A stretch of DNA of 64,000 nucleotides, taken from IMG/VR virus record IMGVR_UViG_3300036834_000211, positions 1 through 64,000 of that record. One strand, 5' to 3'. The DNA comes from a virus. Below, one piece after another: positions 21,329 to 32,915 of this stretch. Below the pieces are notes generated by a model. The model made no database searches and was not told where the DNA came from. It saw nothing but the letters and a program-made list of their open reading frames with translations. Each line of letters starts with the position of its first letter. Position 1 is the first letter of the stretch. Both the position numbers and the translations under genes were made by a program.

Positions 21329-23898
21329 AGAGCAAGAAGTATCCCAGTCTGACCTCCGCTCAGCGGACTGAGGCGGCCATCAAGCGGATGGCTGCGAAGA
21401 CTCCCGAGCAGCGGGCTGCTTCGATGCGCAAGGGGTGGCAGACCAGGAGGCGCAACCTGGGCACACTCGCGGTCTCAATTCTGATCCTGTGTGCCCACGC
21501 CGCCCTCGCCCAGTGCCCAACCTCGGCCAACAGCACGCCGAACTTCCCGACCGGTGGTAACCTGTTCGGCAGGTCGGGTCCTCAGGTTAACGCATACTTC
21601 GGTGCCAAGGCCGATTCCAACAACGGCGTGCTGTGCGGACCGTCCATTCAGAACCTGCCCAACCCGGTCAACCCCGGGGATGCGGCGAGCAGGCAGTACG
21701 TCGACAACAAGGCGACCCCGATCGTCCTCAAGAACCCGGTCTCCGTGGTGACCAACGGGTCGGCGACGTTCACCGGGTCGATCTCCGGTACCGCGCTGAC
21801 TGTTTCGGTCGTCTCGTCCGGTAAGATCGGTCCCAATCAGTTCCTCACCGGCACCGGGGTCACAGCGGGGACCCAGATAGTGTCCGGTAGCGGGACGTCG
21901 TGGGTCGTATCACCCTCCCAGACCGTCTCCTCCGCGGCGATGACGTCGTCGGGAGCGCTCCCGCCCAACGCCTACTCCAATGGGACCAACGGCATCGGAG
22001 CATCGCTGACCGGGCTGTCCAATGGGGCGCTGTCGATCGACGGCGTCGCGGTCACGGCGGGGATGAGGGTGGGTGTCAAGGACGAGATCAGCCCCACCAA
22101 CAACGGCATGTACGTCGTCACCGCGCCGGGTGACTCTAGTCATCCCTACGTGCTGACTCGCGCCCCGGGACCCCCCATTCAGGCTGAGTACGACTCCAGC
22201 TTGAGCATCACCCCAAACAGCTACTTCCTGGCGACCGGCGGGCAGATCAACACGTCGACCGGCTGGCTGATGACGACCCAGGGGATCATCACGGTCGGCG
22301 TGTCGCCCATCAGCTTCGTGCAGTTCACCCAGGCTACCCCGGGACTCGGCTACACGCCGCTCAACCCGGTGAATAACCTGGCGGACGTAGCTAGCGCCGC
22401 GACCGCTCGGAACAACCTCATCCCCAGCGGGACCATCTTATTATCCCAACTTGCTTCGAGCGTCGCCGGGCAGATCGCGAGCTGCCCGAACGTCATGGCC
22501 TACGGCGCCGACCCGACTGGCGCGGCGGACAACGCGGCGGCGTGGGGTGCCATCCTCGCTGCGCAAGCGACTAATCCATGTGTGTACTTCCCAAGAGGAA
22601 AGTACAAGTTCCTCTCTGCGCTGACGTACACCTTCCCCGCCGACAGGCAAGCCATCGTTATCAAGGGCGACGCACCAGACGTTACTGAGCTGACGTGGCC
22701 CAACGCCGTTGGCACGGGACTTCTCATCAACCTGCCCGGTCTGACCGACCACGTTCACGTCCGAGACCTGACCTTCAGTACCGGAACGAACAACGCGGAC
22801 ACTGGCATCAAGCTCGTTCAGCAAACTGCTGCCGGCACTCCGACGGCTTCCGGGGAGATCCAGAGCGACTTCACAAACCTGATCTTCCGGTCGTCCGAAG
22901 GTGTATGGGGAGAAACAGGAGCAGCGACAACGCACGTGTGGCAGAATGGCATCATCACGCAGGATGTCTCATTTGTCCTGTTTAATAACGTCGAGGCGTG
23001 GGGACCATCAACACAGTTAACAATAACCGGCTACGCTAGTCTTACTAATTCCGGTGCTGGAATTACGGTTGTCGGCACCCATCCAACAGGACCACTTCCT
23101 GTTGTCTTTAATTTTACCAATTGCAATTTTCAGTGGTTGAGTAATGGTATTCTCATTGGAAACTTAGTTCAGGGCATCACTATTAGTCAGAGCAACTTCA
23201 CGGGTAATTATACTGGTATCGGCGTGCCCCCAGGCGAGACGGGCCTCGACGAGTTGACCGTCGCGAACGGTAACCAGCTTAACAACATTTATAATCTCAA
23301 TATTCTATCTACCGTTCCTAACCTTATTGTGTCGGGAAACGGCCCCTTCATTCAAGAAGGAGCGGTAAGTGCCGTTGGCATCTACTATCCCGTCCCATCA
23401 TACCTTACAACCATCACTGGGAATACATTCAACGCGGGTGTCTCACCTGTTGGAACGAAAGGTATAGTACTGAATGGGAGTGGATCTGCTGACGTAGCCC
23501 CCGCAACTATCATCGGTAATGCTTTCGTTAATCAAGCCACAGCGATAACGCTCGGCGCGGGTTCTTCTGGTACTGTTGTTAGTGATAATATCTATCCAAA
23601 CACTTCAATAAAGGTCGTGAACAACGGTTCGCCCCTGAACGTCGTGAAGGGCCTCGGCAACGCCTTCGCGGTCGTCGGCGCGGTCACGAACAATGGCTCC
23701 GGCCTGACGCGGCTGACGGTCAGTTCGACGGCACAGTTCGTCACGGGCGAGCAGGTAAGCATCAGCGGGTCCAGCTACCCCTCCGCCAACGTGGTGACGT
23801 TCATCACCGTGGTAGATGGTACCCACTTTGACCTTCCTGCGGTACTCTTCACTGGTGGACCCTATAGTGGCGGCGGTATCGTCAGCTCGATGCCGTAA
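21325..23898 (+). CDS. Tailspike/depolymerase-like beta-helix protein with signal peptide
   Basis: Basic leader then LAVSILILCAHAALA|Q. DAASRQYVD, NNLADV, NVMAYGADPTGAADN..VYFPRGKY (Pectate_lyase_3-like). Confidence 0.75.
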   Translation: MKSKKYPSLTSAQRTEAAIKRMAAKTPEQRAASMRKGWQTRRRNLGTLAVSILILCAHAALAQCPTSANSTPNFPTGGNLFGRSGPQVNAYFGAKADSNNGVLCGPSIQNLPNPVNPGDAASRQYVDNKATPIVLKNPVSVVTNGSATFTGSISGTALTVSVVSSGKIGPNQFLTGTGVTAGTQIVSGSGTSWVVSPSQTVSSAAMTSSGALPPNAYSNGTNGIGASLTGLSNGALSIDGVAVTAGMRVGVKDEISPTNNGMYVVTAPGDSSHPYVLTRAPGPPIQAEYDSSLSITPNSYFLATGGQINTSTGWLMTTQGIITVGVSPISFVQFTQATPGLGYTPLNPVNNLADVASAATARNNLIPSGTILLSQLASSVAGQIASCPNVMAYGADPTGAADNAAAWGAILAAQATNPCVYFPRGKYKFLSALTYTFPADRQAIVIKGDAPDVTELTWPNAVGTGLLINLPGLTDHVHVRDLTFSTGTNNADTGIKLVQQTAAGTPTASGEIQSDFTNLIFRSSEGVWGETGAATTHVWQNGIITQDVSFVLFNNVEAWGPSTQLTITGYASLTNSGAGITVVGTHPTGPLPVVFNFTNCNFQWLSNGILIGNLVQGITISQSNFTGNYTGIGVPPGETGLDELTVANGNQLNNIYNLNILSTVPNLIVSGNGPFIQEGAVSAVGIYYPVPSYLTTITGNTFNAGVSPVGTKGIVLNGSGSADVAPATIIGNAFVNQATAITLGAGSSGTVVSDNIYPNTSIKVVNNGSPLNVVKGLGNAFAVVGAVTNNGSGLTRLTVSSTAQFVTGEQVSISGSSYPSANVVTFITVVDGTHFDLPAVLFTGGPYSGGGIVSSMP

Positions 23899-23905
23899 AA
23901 AGGAG

Positions 23906-24154
23906 ATGAACGTGAGCCTTATTTATCGTGCGCTAGTACTCGTGGTCCTGGCGACCGTCCCGGCTGGTGCCCAGACAGGCGTGCCGCCGTCATACGGACG
24001 CGCCGCGAGGATGCCCCCGCGTCCCCTCACCGCCGAGGAGCTTCGGGCTGCTGCCAAGCTGTGCGAGGGCGACGCCGGGAAGGCGTACCCGGACGCCTGC
24101 GCCGACGTGACTAGGCGGATCGAGGAGGGGTCGAGATCAGAGCCGACGAGGTGA
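23906..24154 (+). CDS. Small secreted protein
   Basis: AGGAG RBS. LVLVVLATVPAGA|Q and a Cys pair. Confidence 0.6.
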   Translation: MNVSLIYRALVLVVLATVPAGAQTGVPPSYGRAARMPPRPLTAEELRAAAKLCEGDAGKAYPDACADVTRRIEEGSRSEPTR

Positions 24155-26058
24155 TCGGTCGCGTCCTCGATCCCTTCCAGCGCCCCTTCGGCGCTCCCGC
24201 CGTCCTGGCAGCGGACGCCGCGCCCCGCCGTCCCAGGCGAACGGCGGACGGCAGGCCGATCGGGGCCGCGATCCGGCCCAGCGCCGGCATCCAGGCCAAC
24301 TACGACGCGCGCCTGCGCCGCCTCCTCGACGAGATGTGCGTCTCCGTGCTGTACTGGGTCAAGGCCGCGTACCGGAGGGAGGACGAGCGGATCGGGGTAC
24401 TCGCCGCGGATTCGTGGATCGACTCTAGTCCTGATCCGTCCTCATTCGCATTGGACGCCCGCCCGAGTACCGCGCTGCGGGAGGTCATCCGGCGCCTGCG
24501 GCGCCGCTGGCTGGGCCGGTTCGACGAGGCCTCGCAGGACCTGGCGCGCTACTTCGCGACCGCGGTCTGGCGTCGCAATGCCGACGAGCTGCGAAAGATC
24601 CTGAGGAGGGGCGGCCTCTCGGTCGAGTTCAGGCCCGGCCGCGCCGCGCGAGACGCGCTGGCCGCGATCGTCGAGGAGAACGTCGCGCTGATCCGGAGCA
24701 TCCCCCAGCAGTACCTGACCCAGGTCGAGGGGTCCGTGATGCGCAGCGTGGTGGCCGGGCGCGACCTGGCCGCGCTGACCTCCGATCTCCAGCACCAGCA
24801 CGGGGTGACCAGGCGACGTGCCGAGCTGATCTCGCTCCACCAGAACAACATGGCGACCGGCGCGATTCAGCGCGTCCAGTACCTCGACCTGGGGATCGAG
24901 CGGGCGATCTGGAGGCATAGCCACGCCGGCAAGTGCAAGCGCCCGTCCCACGTTGCCAACGACGGCGAGGAGTACGACGTCCGGACCGGGTGGTACGACC
25001 CGCACGAGAGGCGGTATATTAGACCAGGAGAATTGATTCACTGCTTTCCTGGATCAACTCAGATCGAGCTCCGGCGTAGTATCTCTATCGAGAGGCTTTG
25101 GCGTTCGTTTTTCAACGGACCAGTGATCAACCTCGTGGTGGGAACCGATTTGCTCCAGTCGACACCTAATCACCCAATACTGACCCGAGATGGTTGGAAG
25201 TCTGCTAATGCGATTGAGGTAGGAGACGAGATAATTTGCGTGCTCAGTGAGGATGCGAGCGTTGTTGCAAACCAGGAATACAAATTTGTAACCAGCTTCG
25301 CCGATCTTTTTGAAACGTGCCTCATTATTTTTGGAAATGTGCGCCGAAGTCGAGCTAGTTTTGACTTCTATGGCGACGTTCCCGATAGTGATGTCGATGA
25401 GGTAGCTGTCGATCACGGTCTGCTGCTCGAATACTATTCCCTTACTTTCGAGCAGTGTGGCGAGTTCCGCCTCGCCGAATCCGATGGATGGGTTAAATAT
25501 TCCGTTTTGGACGTTCTCGATCGCGTTCTGCATTCGTCGGCTGCGTGCGGACTCGGTATATTGTCTTCGCTGTTCGATGGTACGATTAGAAGCCATAAGT
25601 CGGTTTGCGTCTCCCACCGATCTGCGAGGGATGGCCCTCTCTTCGAGGATGCGCTCAACGTTGCTTCTACTGATGCCGAGCTTGCGTCCAATGTTCGGCG
25701 ATCCATCTCCACTCAAGTACATTGTGACGACTTGCGCCTTCGTTTCGGCAGAGATGGAGTCGAGCTTGGTGGGAGGTCGACCCCAAGGACGTCCGGGTCG
25801 ATGTCCTATCGGGATCTTGAAGCCGCGGCCACGCAGCGCAGTACTTACTTGGTCGGCGGTAAAGCCGACGGCTTCGGCAGCTTCCTTGAGTCGCGCGCCC
25901 GCTCGTATCAGATCCGCTGCATTAGCGAGAAGTTTATCGGGGATTTTTCTGGACATGTATATACCATGCAAACTAACCTAGGGTATTATACTGTCGGTGC
26001 GGTAAATGTCCTAGCGAAAAATTGCCGCTGCTTCAGCCAGCCAATACTGCCGAGGTGA
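24151..26058 (+). CDS. MuF/SPP1 gp7-like head morphogenesis protein, intein-containing
   Basis: ENVALIRSIPQQYL, RRRAELI..Q, WRHSHAGK..RPSH. The conserved PGELI(H)-CRC motif is split by the insertion. Confidence 0.9.
   Translation: MIGRVLDPFQRPFGAPAVLAADAAPRRPRRTADGRPIGAAIRPSAGIQANYDARLRRLLDEMCVSVLYWVKAAYRREDERIGVLAADSWIDSSPDPSSFALDARPSTALREVIRRLRRRWLGRFDEASQDLARYFATAVWRRNADELRKILRRGGLSVEFRPGRAARDALAAIVEENVALIRSIPQQYLTQVEGSVMRSVVAGRDLAALTSDLQHQHGVTRRRAELISLHQNNMATGAIQRVQYLDLGIERAIWRHSHAGKCKRPSHVANDGEEYDVRTGWYDPHERRYIRPGELIHCFPGSTQIELRRSISIERLWRSFFNGPVINLVVGTDLLQSTPNHPILTRDGWKSANAIEVGDEIICVLSEDASVVANQEYKFVTSFADLFETCLIIFGNVRRSRASFDFYGDVPDSDVDEVAVDHGLLLEYYSLTFEQCGEFRLAESDGWVKYSVLDVLDRVLHSSAACGLGILSSLFDGTIRSHKSVCVSHRSARDGPLFEDALNVASTDAELASNVRRSISTQVHCDDLRLRFGRDGVELGGRSTPRTSGSMSYRDLEAAATQRSTYLVGGKADGFGSFLESRARSYQIRCISEKFIGDFSGHVYTMQTNLGYYTVGAVNVLAKNCRCFSQPILPR
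25054..25956 (-). CDS. HTH plus Vsr/DUF559-like endonuclease encoded antisense within the intein
   Basis: HTH-like segments (LKEAAEAVG; VVTMYLSG..SPNIGRKLGISRSNVERIL), then EAELATLLESKGIVFEQQTVIDSYLIDITIGNVAIEV. Confidence 0.8.
   Translation of the reverse strand: MSRKIPDKLLANAADLIRAGARLKEAAEAVGFTADQVSTALRGRGFKIPIGHRPGRPWGRPPTKLDSISAETKAQVVTMYLSGDGSPNIGRKLGISRSNVERILEERAIPRRSVGDANRLMASNRTIEQRRQYTESARSRRMQNAIENVQNGIFNPSIGFGEAELATLLESKGIVFEQQTVIDSYLIDITIGNVAIEVKTSSTSAHISKNNEARFKKIGEAGYKFVFLVCNNARILTEHANYLVSYLNRISRLPTISGQYWVIRCRLEQIGSHHEVDHWSVEKRTPKPLDRDTTPELDLS
25985..26012 (-). promoter_or_regulatory. Candidate promoter for the antisense endonuclease
   Basis: Minus strand AGGACA-16nt-TATAAT, ending 29 nt before ATG 25956. 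Confidence 0.55.
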
Positions 26059-29939: not shown

Positions 29940-32915
29940 GTGTCGTCCTGTTCATTATTGCCTCTGTGCTTCGACTGCTCTCGCCTGCGCGGCGTCGTAC
30001 CGGATGTGGGCTGGACCTGCGAGGCGTTCCCTAGTGGTATCCCGACCGACATCCTGGCATCAGTCCACGACCACCGCGAGCCGTACGAGGGCGACGGCGG
30101 TCTGACGTTCGAGTCCAAGGTGACGGCTCAGGATTGGTGGGGTGATGTCGAGTGGAATGAGGGAGAGCACCCGCGCGGTCAGCCCGAAAACAAAGGTCAG
30201 TTTGCCAAGACTTCGAGTGTTGACCCGAAGGTTCATTCAGGTCTCGAGAAGAAAGGTTTTTCGCACGCAGGTGGCGAGGAGGCTCGTTATACTCACGCTT
30301 CGGGGCATGGGATCAGTTTTGAGCCACCGGCAAGGGAGGGTAGCTACGCCTACCAGTGGCAGCATCACGATCCTCAGGGAAATCTCGTCAAGAGAGACTT
30401 TGGCACCAGCACCCTAACAACCCATACGAACAAGATAGTTCGTGAAGCGCAAAGGGCTCCTACTGCTGAAATACCCGAGACACCCGATTGGAAGACGCCT
30501 GAAGAGGCTGCTAAAGGATTCCGCGAGCGGCATGGAAGCGCCATCATATTTGACAATTCGATATCATCCGCTGCTCAAGTATCGAAAACAAAGCAGCTTG
30601 ATCACTCATTAAGCGAGATCAAAGCCAATTTTCCTGGTTTAGGTGCTCTTGTTAGTGTATCCCAATTCGAAATCGCCAGTGGGCGCAGTGTCCCAATGGA
30701 GGACAGTGCGGGTGCGATGGGTGGATATTATCCACAGACTAGGAGACTTGTACTAGCTTCCAGTCTCAGAACAGAGGATGGGGTTCTTCACCGCGGACAG
30801 CATCTGGTTGGTGGACATACTCTACCTAACGTCCTACGACATGAGTTGGGGCACGCTATCGAGCGCAAGGTTCGTGAGGCCTCACCTGGAGGTTGGTCTA
30901 GTACGTGGTGGCAGGAGGTAAAGAAAACTGCTGGTAAAGACATCAGCAAGTATGCCGCGACCAACTTTGCCGAGTACTTCGCCGAATCCGTAGCAGCATA
31001 TTTGCATCCAGACTTTGCAACCAGTGGGGTTAAGATTGCTCCACGCATTCTAGAAGCTTTTGACAGTTTGCTGAGAAAGTCTCCACCCGAGGGCAAATCT
31101 TTAGATCAACACATTGAAGATTCGATGCCCGAACTGACTACAGACCCCCCCGAGTCCGAGGCCCAACGCCGCGCCATGTTCGCGGCTGCGGCCGGCCACT
31201 CGAACCTGGGCATCTCCCCGAGCGTGGGCAAGGAGTTCGCCGAGTCCGACCCGGGCGGCAAGCTGCCCGAGAAGGTCGGCAAGGACCTGGCCCCCCGCAA
31301 GTGGAAGATCCTCAAGCGCCTGTTCGGCGAGTGGCTGGACGAGGAGGAGGCCGAGCCGGAGCACCAGACCGTCGACGGGTGGGATGAGTGGTCTCCAGAG
31401 GCTCGAGAGGCGGCGGCCAAGGCAAGACAAAAGAAGACCCCTTTTGAGCGTGCGATGGAGCGAACCAATAAGGGTATTGCTAAGACCGAGCGCGAAAAAG
31501 CGAAGTATGGCGGCTTGACTGCGCCTCCTAAAGGAAAGAAAATTCAAGGCCCTAGCGAGTATGACCCAAATAATCCTGCAGGTCACAAGAGATTTGATTC
31601 GGCTGACGACAACTGGACACGCCGGGGCCGAGCGGCCAGCGTAGCGCTCACCACCGGGGACGGCCACGTCCTGCTCCTGCGACGGGCACGAGACGAGACG
31701 AACTGGCCCGATACCTGGTCGTTCCCCGGTGGGAAGGCAGAGGATGACGAGGATGACGAATCCGCCGCCAGGCGGGAGTTGGGCGAGGAGACTGGTTACG
31801 ACGGCGCCCTCGACGGCATGGCCGAGCTGGAGCGCACCCGCACCCCGAACGACTTCGAGCACGTCACCTACGTCGTCCCAGTCAGGGAGAAGTTCGAGCC
31901 CAAGCTTAGCCGGGAGCACAGCGGCTTTATGTGGGCTCCGGTGACCCGACTGCCCGAGAATACCCACCCCGGCGTCCGAGCCGCGATCGACCGGGTGATC
32001 GGGAAGGTGGCCGACGACGACGGTGCTCGAGACAAGAAGCTCGTCGTAGACCTGGACGACGACGAGAACCAACTCACCAAGCTGCTGACCCACATCAAGG
32101 AGACGGCCTCCGTCGGTCACTCGTTCGAGGTCGTGGTCGACCCGGAGGACCCGGAGCATCGGGCCAAGTTCTTCATCGACGGCGACGGCGCGTTCCGCAT
32201 CAAGAAGGTGGAGCAGGCCGCCGACGAGCTGGCGATGGACTGGACCGGGACCGCGATCCTCAGTCACTCGCCGCCCTGCGAGCTGGGGCTCTTCGACCCG
32301 AATGGACCAGTTCCACCTGTCTTCGACTTCGCCTACGACCGCGAGTCGGCCCGGCAGTACGATGCGGACGGTCACCTCCACGTCAGGGACGTGAACATCG
32401 CCAAGGCGAGCGTCAACGAGTATCTCGGCGAGGAGATCCCGGACTGGGAGAAGCTGGGGCTGGACCCGAAGAGGAAGTACCGCCTGTGGCGACACCCGGA
32501 CGAGCTGAAGAAGGCCGTTCCGACGGCCAACGGGAAGCCGATCCTGGACGACCACGCGCCGATCAACGCGGACACGCACGATCGAAAGATGGTCGTCGGA
32601 TCGGTTGGCACCGACGCGAGGTGGGAGCCCCCGTTTGTGAAGTCCACCCTGTCGTTCTGGCCGGCTAAGGCCAGCCGGGAGATTGAGAGCAACCGGCGCC
32701 GCGCCCTGAGCCCGGCTTACCGATACCGACCTGACATGACCCCGGGTCGTACTCCCGACGGCGAGCCTTACGACGGTGTGATGCGCGACATCTCCTTCTC
32801 GCACCTGGCCCAGATCCCGGAGGGTCGCCAGGGACCGGACATCGTCGTCACGGACGAATTGTTCACGTGGTCGACAATCGAGCGGGCCCTGCAGGAGATG
32901 ATGGTCTCGGGATGA
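29940..32915 (+). CDS. Multidomain protein: Cys-motif domain, zincin, NUDIX hydrolase, C-terminal DUF2213 (putative prohead protease)
   Basis: CEAFPSGIP; HELGH..SKYA..EYFAE; GGKAEDDEDDESAARRELGEETG; DADGHLHV..NIAKASVNEYLGEEI..YRYRPDMTPG..HLAQIPEGRQGPD. Confidence 0.85.
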   Translation: MSSCSLLPLCFDCSRLRGVVPDVGWTCEAFPSGIPTDILASVHDHREPYEGDGGLTFESKVTAQDWWGDVEWNEGEHPRGQPENKGQFAKTSSVDPKVHSGLEKKGFSHAGGEEARYTHASGHGISFEPPAREGSYAYQWQHHDPQGNLVKRDFGTSTLTTHTNKIVREAQRAPTAEIPETPDWKTPEEAAKGFRERHGSAIIFDNSISSAAQVSKTKQLDHSLSEIKANFPGLGALVSVSQFEIASGRSVPMEDSAGAMGGYYPQTRRLVLASSLRTEDGVLHRGQHLVGGHTLPNVLRHELGHAIERKVREASPGGWSSTWWQEVKKTAGKDISKYAATNFAEYFAESVAAYLHPDFATSGVKIAPRILEAFDSLLRKSPPEGKSLDQHIEDSMPELTTDPPESEAQRRAMFAAAAGHSNLGISPSVGKEFAESDPGGKLPEKVGKDLAPRKWKILKRLFGEWLDEEEAEPEHQTVDGWDEWSPEAREAAAKARQKKTPFERAMERTNKGIAKTEREKAKYGGLTAPPKGKKIQGPSEYDPNNPAGHKRFDSADDNWTRRGRAASVALTTGDGHVLLLRRARDETNWPDTWSFPGGKAEDDEDDESAARRELGEETGYDGALDGMAELERTRTPNDFEHVTYVVPVREKFEPKLSREHSGFMWAPVTRLPENTHPGVRAAIDRVIGKVADDDGARDKKLVVDLDDDENQLTKLLTHIKETASVGHSFEVVVDPEDPEHRAKFFIDGDGAFRIKKVEQAADELAMDWTGTAILSHSPPCELGLFDPNGPVPPVFDFAYDRESARQYDADGHLHVRDVNIAKASVNEYLGEEIPDWEKLGLDPKRKYRLWRHPDELKKAVPTANGKPILDDHAPINADTHDRKMVVGSVGTDARWEPPFVKSTLSFWPAKASREIESNRRRALSPAYRYRPDMTPGRTPDGEPYDGVMRDISFSHLAQIPEGRQGPDIVVTDELFTWSTIERALQEMMVSG

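Follow-up and report, generated by a model that had tools for sequence, protein, structure and literature searches.

The MuF head-morphogenesis gene in a 64,000-nucleotide stretch of viral DNA (positions 1 to 64,000 of IMG/VR virus record IMGVR_UViG_3300036834_000211; hereafter, the window) is interrupted by an intein, and the strand opposite the intein encodes a second protein, with a nuclease fold. We consider it highly probable that the two together are a composite mobile element, in which a class-1 intein within MuF and an independent antisense homing-endonuclease gene are written on the same triplets. In such an element, the two lobes of the Hint splicing domain (intein residues ~1-125 and 287-327) would splice the insert out, joining ...PGELIH to CRC... 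and restoring MuF, and the ~160 residues between the lobes would be a disordered spacer. The antisense protein of 300 residues would be the homing endonuclease, cutting intein-less MuF alleles in co-infecting phage, and repair off the intein-bearing copy would spread the whole unit along with some of the flanking extein. A dual-coding selfish element had been proposed from the DNA letters alone (hereafter, the sequence-only reading), and the anatomy of the locus, the predicted folds of its two proteins, strand-specific selection and a homing-like footprint in relatives bear this proposal out. The novelty that it implied for the layout did not hold up, since antisense VSR-like endonuclease genes have been described in actinobacteriophage inteins, with minor capsid proteins (MuF, IPR006528) among the host proteins and with an HHpred link to 3R3P (Gosselin, Arsenault, Gogarten 2025, bioRxiv 10.1101/2025.01.02.630785). 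Since the preprint already describes this layout, the window locus is a further case of a known arrangement. What is added here for the MuF family is its wide spread, universal exact codon register, a switch in the strand under selection, dual-coding islands, an embedded Shine-Dalgarno (SD) motif and a missing catalytic His; in the sections of the preprint consulted, we found no mention of exact register, a selection strand switch, dual-coding islands or an embedded SD.

The intein is bounded by the junctions ...PGELIH|CFPGSTQ..., at residue 298 of the MuF open reading frame (ORF), and ...VLAKN|CRC, at residues 624/625 (Table 1). The N-extein matches phrog_324 (head morphogenesis) at E 3e-56 and also matches Pfam Phage_Mu_F, under the family cut-off. 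On the opposite strand, the ATG of the nuclease gene occupies 25954-25956 and its TGA stop codon 25054-25056, facing Ser302 of the sense ORF; a longer form of the antisense ORF (25054-25971, 305 aa) starts at an in-frame upstream TTG (25971). Since 25969-24151 is a multiple of 3, both frames lie on the same triplets and the register is exact, with sense codon position 1 being antisense position 3. The antisense ORF also overlaps block B of the intein (TPNHPILT, 25162-25185). G+C content was 0.47-0.60 over 25000-26050, compared to 0.68-0.74 over 23950-25000. Thus, the main structural claims of the sequence-only reading, i.e., an intein with intact splicing blocks (Cys1, TPNH, KN|C) in a MuF gene, an antisense ORF in exact codon register inside it and over block B, and an insert more AT-rich than its flanks, all agree with the coordinates and composition of the locus.

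Table 1. Positions of the features of the MuF intein locus within the window
Feature	Coordinates	Strand	Remarks
MuF/head-morphogenesis ORF with intein	24151-26058	+	635 aa
N-extein of MuF	24151-25041	+	Residues 1-297; phrog_324, Phage_Mu_F; GTG start uncertain
Class-1 intein	25042-26022	+	327 residues; Cys1, block B, block F, Asn327, +1 Cys
C-extein CRCFSQPILPR and stop codon	26023-26058	+	Matches C-terminus of the intein-less allele, CRCTWEAVIPG...
Antisense nuclease gene	25054-25956	-	300 aa; wholly within intein; same codon register
Two three-helix helix-turn-helix (HTH) modules	25639-25938	-	Antisense residues 7-43 and 70-106; Pfam, PDB profile, AlphaFold2 (AF2)
Vsr/DUF559-like nuclease domain	25102-25494	-	Antisense residues 155-285; structure and profile matches
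Sigma-70-like promoter match, AGGACA-16 nt-TATAAT	25985-26012	-	Consensus scan, 10/12; pattern match only
Island 1, sense T-P-N-H-P-I (block B) = antisense Y-W-V-I-R-C	25162-25179	both	
Island 2, sense F109-Y110-G111-D112 = antisense V194-A195-I196-E197	25366-25377	both	

The antisense protein has recognizable domains. Pfam placed HTH_23 and HTH_28 over their cut-offs, both at E 1e-5, and found HTH_31 (26.0 bits, cut-off 27) and DUF559 (E 0.076) under theirs. A HMMER search of 1.84 billion cluster representatives returned 866 homologues at E<=1e-3 and 226 at E<=1e-10; since most homologues begin at query residue 6, the ATG at 25956 was taken as the start, giving a protein of 300 aa. An AF2 model built from an 83-sequence alignment (A2) had a mean predicted local distance difference test score (pLDDT) of 90.6 and a predicted template modeling score (pTM) of 0.71, and comprised two three-helix HTH modules, a long helix, an alpha/beta core of the Vsr type and a C-terminal beta-hairpin. 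Foldseek gave no match at E<=1e-3 for the entire three-domain model, and VIA-align then gave matches for its domains. Residues 155-285 aligned with E. coli Vsr (1cw0_A) at Z 10.1 and a root-mean-square deviation (rmsd) of 3.2 over 113 residues, and the I-Bth0305I catalytic domain (3r3p, Z 9.5), 1vsr (Z 9.0) and a DUF559 protein (3hrl, Z 8.7) also aligned with the model. Profile matches were found to 3hrl (7e-5), to 3r3p (3e-4, with a residue alignment) and to the tandem-HTH protein 2lvs (E 3.6e-6). The protein therefore joins N-terminal tandem HTH/NUMOD-like modules to a C-terminal Vsr-like domain, and the HTH segments and Vsr/DUF559-type motif that the sequence-only reading had seen were recovered by profile searches and in the modeled structure.

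Conservation within the family centers on the nuclease core. D188 and E197 are invariant (83/83), E162 is present in 82/83 sequences, and E162, Q179, Y185 and A195 are near-invariant; the window copy keeps G159, G161, E162, Q179, Y185, D188, A195 and E197, plus K199. I-Bth0305I is a characterized homing endonuclease of the EDxHD type (Taylor et al., 2011; PMC3239194), and its Glu and Asp align with those of the window family, E162 and D188 falling at the first Glu and the D196(A) position of 3r3p, respectively. Unlike I-Bth0305I, the window family does not conserve the His of this motif (H213, the general base, with its adjacent Asp); columns ~204-206 vary, with Gly, Ala, Arg and Ser being the commonest residues. 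A Lys two residues after E197 (K199, forming E-x-K) occurs in 47/83 sequences. Since a Vsr-type His is not conserved and E197 is invariant instead, we filed the family as a Vsr-fold relative and not as a strict EDxHD member. These results support the antisense ORF being a real gene, under selection for an HTH-plus-Vsr/DUF559-like nuclease, which presumably cleaves DNA with intein-less MuF as its target. A Vsr-fold nuclease that has modular HTH reading heads and dispenses with the catalytic His may also be of interest as a nuclease scaffold.

The sense strand presents a different picture. An AF2 model of the 327-residue intein, built from a 53-sequence alignment (A3), had pLDDT >82 across most of residues 1-125 (with a dip at ~71-80) and across 287-327, and <50 for residues 127-284. 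The model has a Hint fold that superimposes on the Mtu RecA mini-intein (2in0) at Z 12.5 and rmsd 1.6 over 108 residues; 58 chains aligned at Z>=8 and, among those listed, all were inteins, bacterial intein-like (BIL) domains or Hedgehog Hint domains. Since Pfam matched no intein or Hint family to the sense protein at E<=1, it is the structure that establishes the Hint fold. The splicing motifs of a class-1 intein are all in place in the window, i.e., Cys1, T41-x-x-H44 in block B, F302-S-G-H305-V-Y in block F, Asn327 and a +1 Cys. Across the family, C1, T41, H44, P45 and Y316 are invariant, N327 occurs in 71/72 sequences and the +1 Cys in nearly all loci. The sequence-only reading had reported no LAGLIDADG or HNH motif in the middle of the insert, and Pfam agreed, finding neither in the sense protein and returning Phage_Mu_F only. 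The data therefore support a sense middle (127-284) that is not a nuclease and is predicted to be disordered. Given that the Hint lobes are under purifying selection (sense pN/pS 0.27-0.41) and that the sense frame stays open in relatives, the window intein would be expected to splice.

One part of the sense protein, intein residues 84-127 (85-127 = 25294-25422), stands apart, having pLDDT of 82-94, facing the catalytic core of the nuclease and showing sense-specific constraint at F90, F109, [HY]110, G111, D112 and D119. The 108 residues aligned to the RecA mini-intein equal the count of residues 1-67 plus 287-327, although the aligned ranges are ambiguous for 81-125. This argues that the ~84-127 segment sits beyond the end of the canonical Hint N-lobe, with which the position of block B agrees.

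To compare the constraint on the two strands, we tallied nucleotide differences by sense codon position (1/2/3) in 11 phylogenetically independent close pairs of loci. In the N-extein, differences were distributed 325/218/790, so that the wobble there follows the sense frame. In the intein middle (sense residues 373-590), they were distributed 386/143/285 (binomial p = 1e-4), and 48/6/18 in the six most recent pairs; here, the wobble is that of the antisense frame. The Hint N-lobe (96/39/107) and C-lobe (29/12/51) were tallied in the same way, and in 20-codon windows the wobble switches near sense residues 358 and 598. Nei-Gojobori pN/pS in the middle was 0.39 for the antisense frame vs. 0.70 for the sense frame, and, among the six most recent pairs, four had an omega of ~0.1 for antisense vs. 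0.46-1.13 for sense; because each overlapping frame confounds the dN/dS of the other, these ratios have comparative value only. The per-strand check that the sequence-only reading had suggested for homologous MuF inteins thus places the stronger constraint on the antisense frame in the middle. The Hint lobes are thus selected for their sense reading and the middle for its antisense reading, with three short islands where both readings are under selection.

Both frames are kept open throughout the family. A search of viral contigs with the single antisense protein found no related loci; with the alignment as query, 80 viral loci and 4 genome loci were recovered. Both frames were open across the entire overlap in 84/85 loci, the sense frame of one locus (L079) covering it only partly, and all were in exact register. 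The remaining two opposite frames were closed in all loci examined. Thus, stops do not break the antisense ORF in these 85 loci, one of the outcomes that would have told against it. TTA, CTA and TCA codons in one frame are stop codons in the other, and their avoidance keeps both frames open; all three were absent from the nuclease gene in 46 non-redundant loci (each with ~20 Leu and ~20 Ser codons), for which the median chance was 3e-5 per locus considering each locus's own extein codon usage.

These data bear on whether the antisense ORF might be a by-product, either because it mirrors the conservation of a sense insert that has a function or because the frame was left open by chance. In exact register, conservation is partly mirrored between strands, and in the window alone the chance of an open frame is ~0.02 for antisense and ~0.07 for sense. 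However, the sense middle that would have to be the functional partner has no family match and a pLDDT <50, so the insert does not itself fold as a nuclease, while it is the antisense frame that is modeled with confidence and has known HTH and nuclease folds. In addition, the wobble pattern favors the antisense frame, a conserved SD precedes its ATG, and conserved antisense residues with free wobble scramble the sense residue opposite; at G159, for example, wobble turns the sense residue into A, S, P or T. We therefore regard a by-product as extremely improbable.

At a few sites, the two frames constrain each other. Codon tables across 78 loci revealed frozen synonymous sites in two islands (Table 1). 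In island 1, the sense codons of block B are fixed as ACA (69/78), AAT (69/78), CAC (69/78) and CCA (73/78), followed by ATA/GTA, and the antisense YWVIRC forms a strand of the nuclease fold in the part of the model aligned with Vsr. In island 2, the family consensus is F-H-G-D or F-[HY]-G-D in sense and V-A-V-E in antisense. The codon of the catalytic E197 is GAA in 75/77 loci and that of A195 is GCC in 74/77, which together fix the sense F-[HY]-G-D. Similar frozen pairs (antisense/sense) are K216/F90, I187/D119 and K4/F302, the last in block F. In contrast, E162 and E164 are split about equally between GAA and GAG, and wobble is free at other conserved residues, both sense (G4, R21, G26, G51) and antisense (E162, E164, G159, G161, G192, A137). 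Hence, constraint applies to both frames at once in three places: block B, the F-[HY]-G-D segment that faces the catalytic Glu, and block F. The sequence-only reading had held that the sense strand merely has to stay open, which is correct for about intein residues 128-300 and incorrect at these three places.

It is conceivable, though in our estimation rather doubtful, that the two genes are co-adapted and not merely stacked, making this a deep and ancient bidirectional dual-coding system. Were that so, loss or shift of either gene would break the other, and the antisense layout would make nuclease timing independent of the late MuF gene, possibly with antisense-RNA control of MuF. As part of the same co-adaptation, the sense Phe that shares the codon of the catalytic Glu could itself be selected, within an F-H-G-D...D segment (84-127), a suggestion that we make only tentatively. 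In any case, the combination of a selection switch with frozen synonymous sites makes this a clean case in which to ask how far antisense dual coding can go, and the MuF intein family constitutes a large natural case of two proteins encoded on opposite strands of the same triplets.

In most relatives, the antisense gene appears to have a translation signal of its own. An SD-like 4-mer (GGAG, GAGG or AAGG) is present at -13/-12 of the antisense ATG in 40/59 non-identical loci, against a background of 6.6% for that strand of these genes, and the sense codons N-L-[EQ] of block F contain the motif; these results support a dedicated ribosome-binding site. The window and its clade differ in this respect. 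At 25957-25975, a Met for Leu in sense block F converts the SD of this clade into CATGG, and the upstream TTG (25971) of the window is preceded by AGGT and could serve as an alternative start. The sense codons near block G contain the sigma-70-like promoter match, which precedes the antisense ATG by 29 nt, and TATAAT or a one-mismatch variant occurs at an equal offset in many relatives. Selection on the TATAAT (-34) as a promoter was considered and set aside, since the Y316 codon is TAT in 42/59 loci vs. 49% NAT in exteins, too weak a difference. Nuclease expression may be timed separately from that of MuF.

A tblastn search of 50,697 phage records with the antisense protein matched 90-92 of them. 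The matched phages include Aaphi23, Aggregatibacter S1249, 59 Jersey-like Salmonella phages, 15 Pseudomonas phages, and Vibrio, Gordonia (e.g., Malisha), Mycobacterium and Cronobacter phages; with Klebsiella phages and 866 protein clusters, the family thus extends well beyond actinophages. In the records checked for strand, the nuclease match was opposite to the overlying gene. The phage annotations inspected give nothing but one long product, called head morphogenesis, minor capsid or hypothetical protein, with no intein or nuclease. Aaphi23 and the Jersey-like Salmonella phages, well studied as they are, are no exception. In the latter (59 records; e.g., NC_031925.1, 3357-3974), the nuclease matches only query residues ~67-268, so the first HTH module is absent there, and the overlying gene is labeled head morphogenesis, structural protein or 'NAD+--asparagine ADP-ribosyltransferase'. 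The intein with its antisense nuclease also occurs in bacterial contigs of four phyla, presumably as prophages: Mycolicibacterium houstonense (NZ_JACKVJ010000010.1, L085) and metagenome-assembled genomes of Francisellaceae (L084), Zixibacteria (L086) and Chloroflexi (L087).

Comparison of alleles suggests that the unit moves. The MuF of Klebsiella phage RCIP0114 lacks the intein, and its ...YIMPGELPN|CRCTWEAV can be aligned with the spliced junction predicted for the window, ...YIRPGELIH|CRCFSQPI, indicating a precise, in-frame insertion; Klebsiella phage RCIP0054 carries the intein. Two IMG/VR contigs, 2690315907_000003 (L070) and 3300045988_165952 (L021), share 62-68% identity in the upstream extein and 30-45% downstream of the gene. 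Identity rises to 83-93% over the last 240 nt of the N-extein and stands at 92-100% across almost the whole intein, as would be expected of homing with co-conversion. Four further pairs have synonymous divergence (dS) well above that of the intein in their exteins. Judged from such comparisons, these results support the intein and nuclease behaving together as a mobile element.

The same footprint bears on the possibility that the antisense protein is expressed for some other role, whether as a transcription regulator, as an antisense-RNA brake on late MuF or as a nuclease directed against competitor phages. Its two HTH modules and its lack of a Vsr-type catalytic His would suit such roles, and the whole of its mRNA is complementary to a stretch of the MuF mRNA. 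Against this, the nuclease fold is complete and its D188 and E197 never vary, and, among the matches listed (70/92), the gene over it is always a head-morphogenesis, minor-capsid or unannotated gene. Considering also that a co-conversion footprint is present, we think a different role very unlikely.

For the window copy in particular, evidence of mobility is confined to its G+C contrast, and several points weigh against the composite mobile element that we favor. The closest relative of the window nuclease is only ~45% identical, too distant for a comparison that would show recent mobility of this copy. The window clade (window, L004, L006-L008) has CATGG in place of GGAGG, GAGG or AAGG, i.e., a weak ribosome-binding site. 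The general-base His of Vsr and I-Bth0305I is unconserved and the E-x-K Lys occurs in only 57% of sequences, making the catalytic mechanism uncertain, and the dN/dS ratios carry the confounding mentioned above. The penultimate residue of the intein is Lys instead of His. Some active inteins likewise lack a penultimate His.

A related question is whether the gene, though real in the family, is in the window an immobile, vertically inherited relic, in which the intein splices and the nuclease is unexpressed or inactive. The weak SD-like motif of the window clade fits this. No relative closer than ~45% was found from which a homing footprint might be shown for this copy, and several inteins with VSR-like homing endonucleases are reported to look vertically inherited (Gosselin et al., 2025). 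However, the ORF of the window copy is intact and retains every invariant residue as well as K199, its promoter-like site agrees at 10/12 positions, and the marked difference in G+C content from the host gene points to a recent arrival. A relic is therefore unlikely, though less so than the other alternatives considered here, and a composite mobile element is still the explanation that we prefer.

Elements of this layout have been found in several other systems. Like the inteins of Gosselin et al. (2025), the window has a full, contiguous intein whose splicing blocks flank a VSR-like gene encoded on the other strand; unlike their actinophages, it comes from a 114.5-kb, high-G+C, uncultivated virus record. 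'Fractured gene' Vsr-like endonuclease genes have been described between the halves of split inteins (Dassa et al., 2009; PMC2677866). These endonucleases and I-Bth0305I share with the window protein N-terminal tandem HTH/NUMOD-like modules, a C-terminal Vsr fold and an association with phage introns and inteins, but their genes are on the same strand, in a group I intron or free-standing, whereas the window gene is antisense inside a contiguous intein. An endonuclease opposite a contiguous intein is also known from the Ssp DnaX intein, where it is an antisense LAGLIDADG enzyme (Gorbalenya, 1998; Gogarten et al., 2002; both as cited in 10.1101/2025.01.02.630785); there, the nuclease family and host gene differ from those of the window and the genome is cellular, not that of a phage. 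In PI-SceI, PI-PfuI and TliVMA, the Hint domain is interrupted by a mobility function at the same topological site as in the window; however, their endonucleases are in-frame and part of the same polypeptide, whereas the in-frame insert of the window is predicted to be a disordered spacer. The MuF intein family bears on how inteins acquire endonucleases, in particular by invasion of an intein by a free-standing nuclease gene (Dassa et al., 2009; Gosselin et al., 2025).

The gene neighborhood is that of a head module, with small and large terminase, portal, an 857-aa protein, MuF and, later, a prohead-protease polyprotein. The source record is estimated to be 94% complete. The polyprotein is encoded by an ORF at 29940-32915 (991 aa) with a NUDIX hydrolase at residues 565-685 and a C-terminal prohead maturation protease at residues 796-978, and looks like a cargo-protease polyprotein. 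Between portal and MuF, the last third of the 857-aa ORF (22750-23650) has a G+C content of 0.46-0.50, compared to 0.60-0.65 for the gene, and is a second compositionally foreign segment near the intein.

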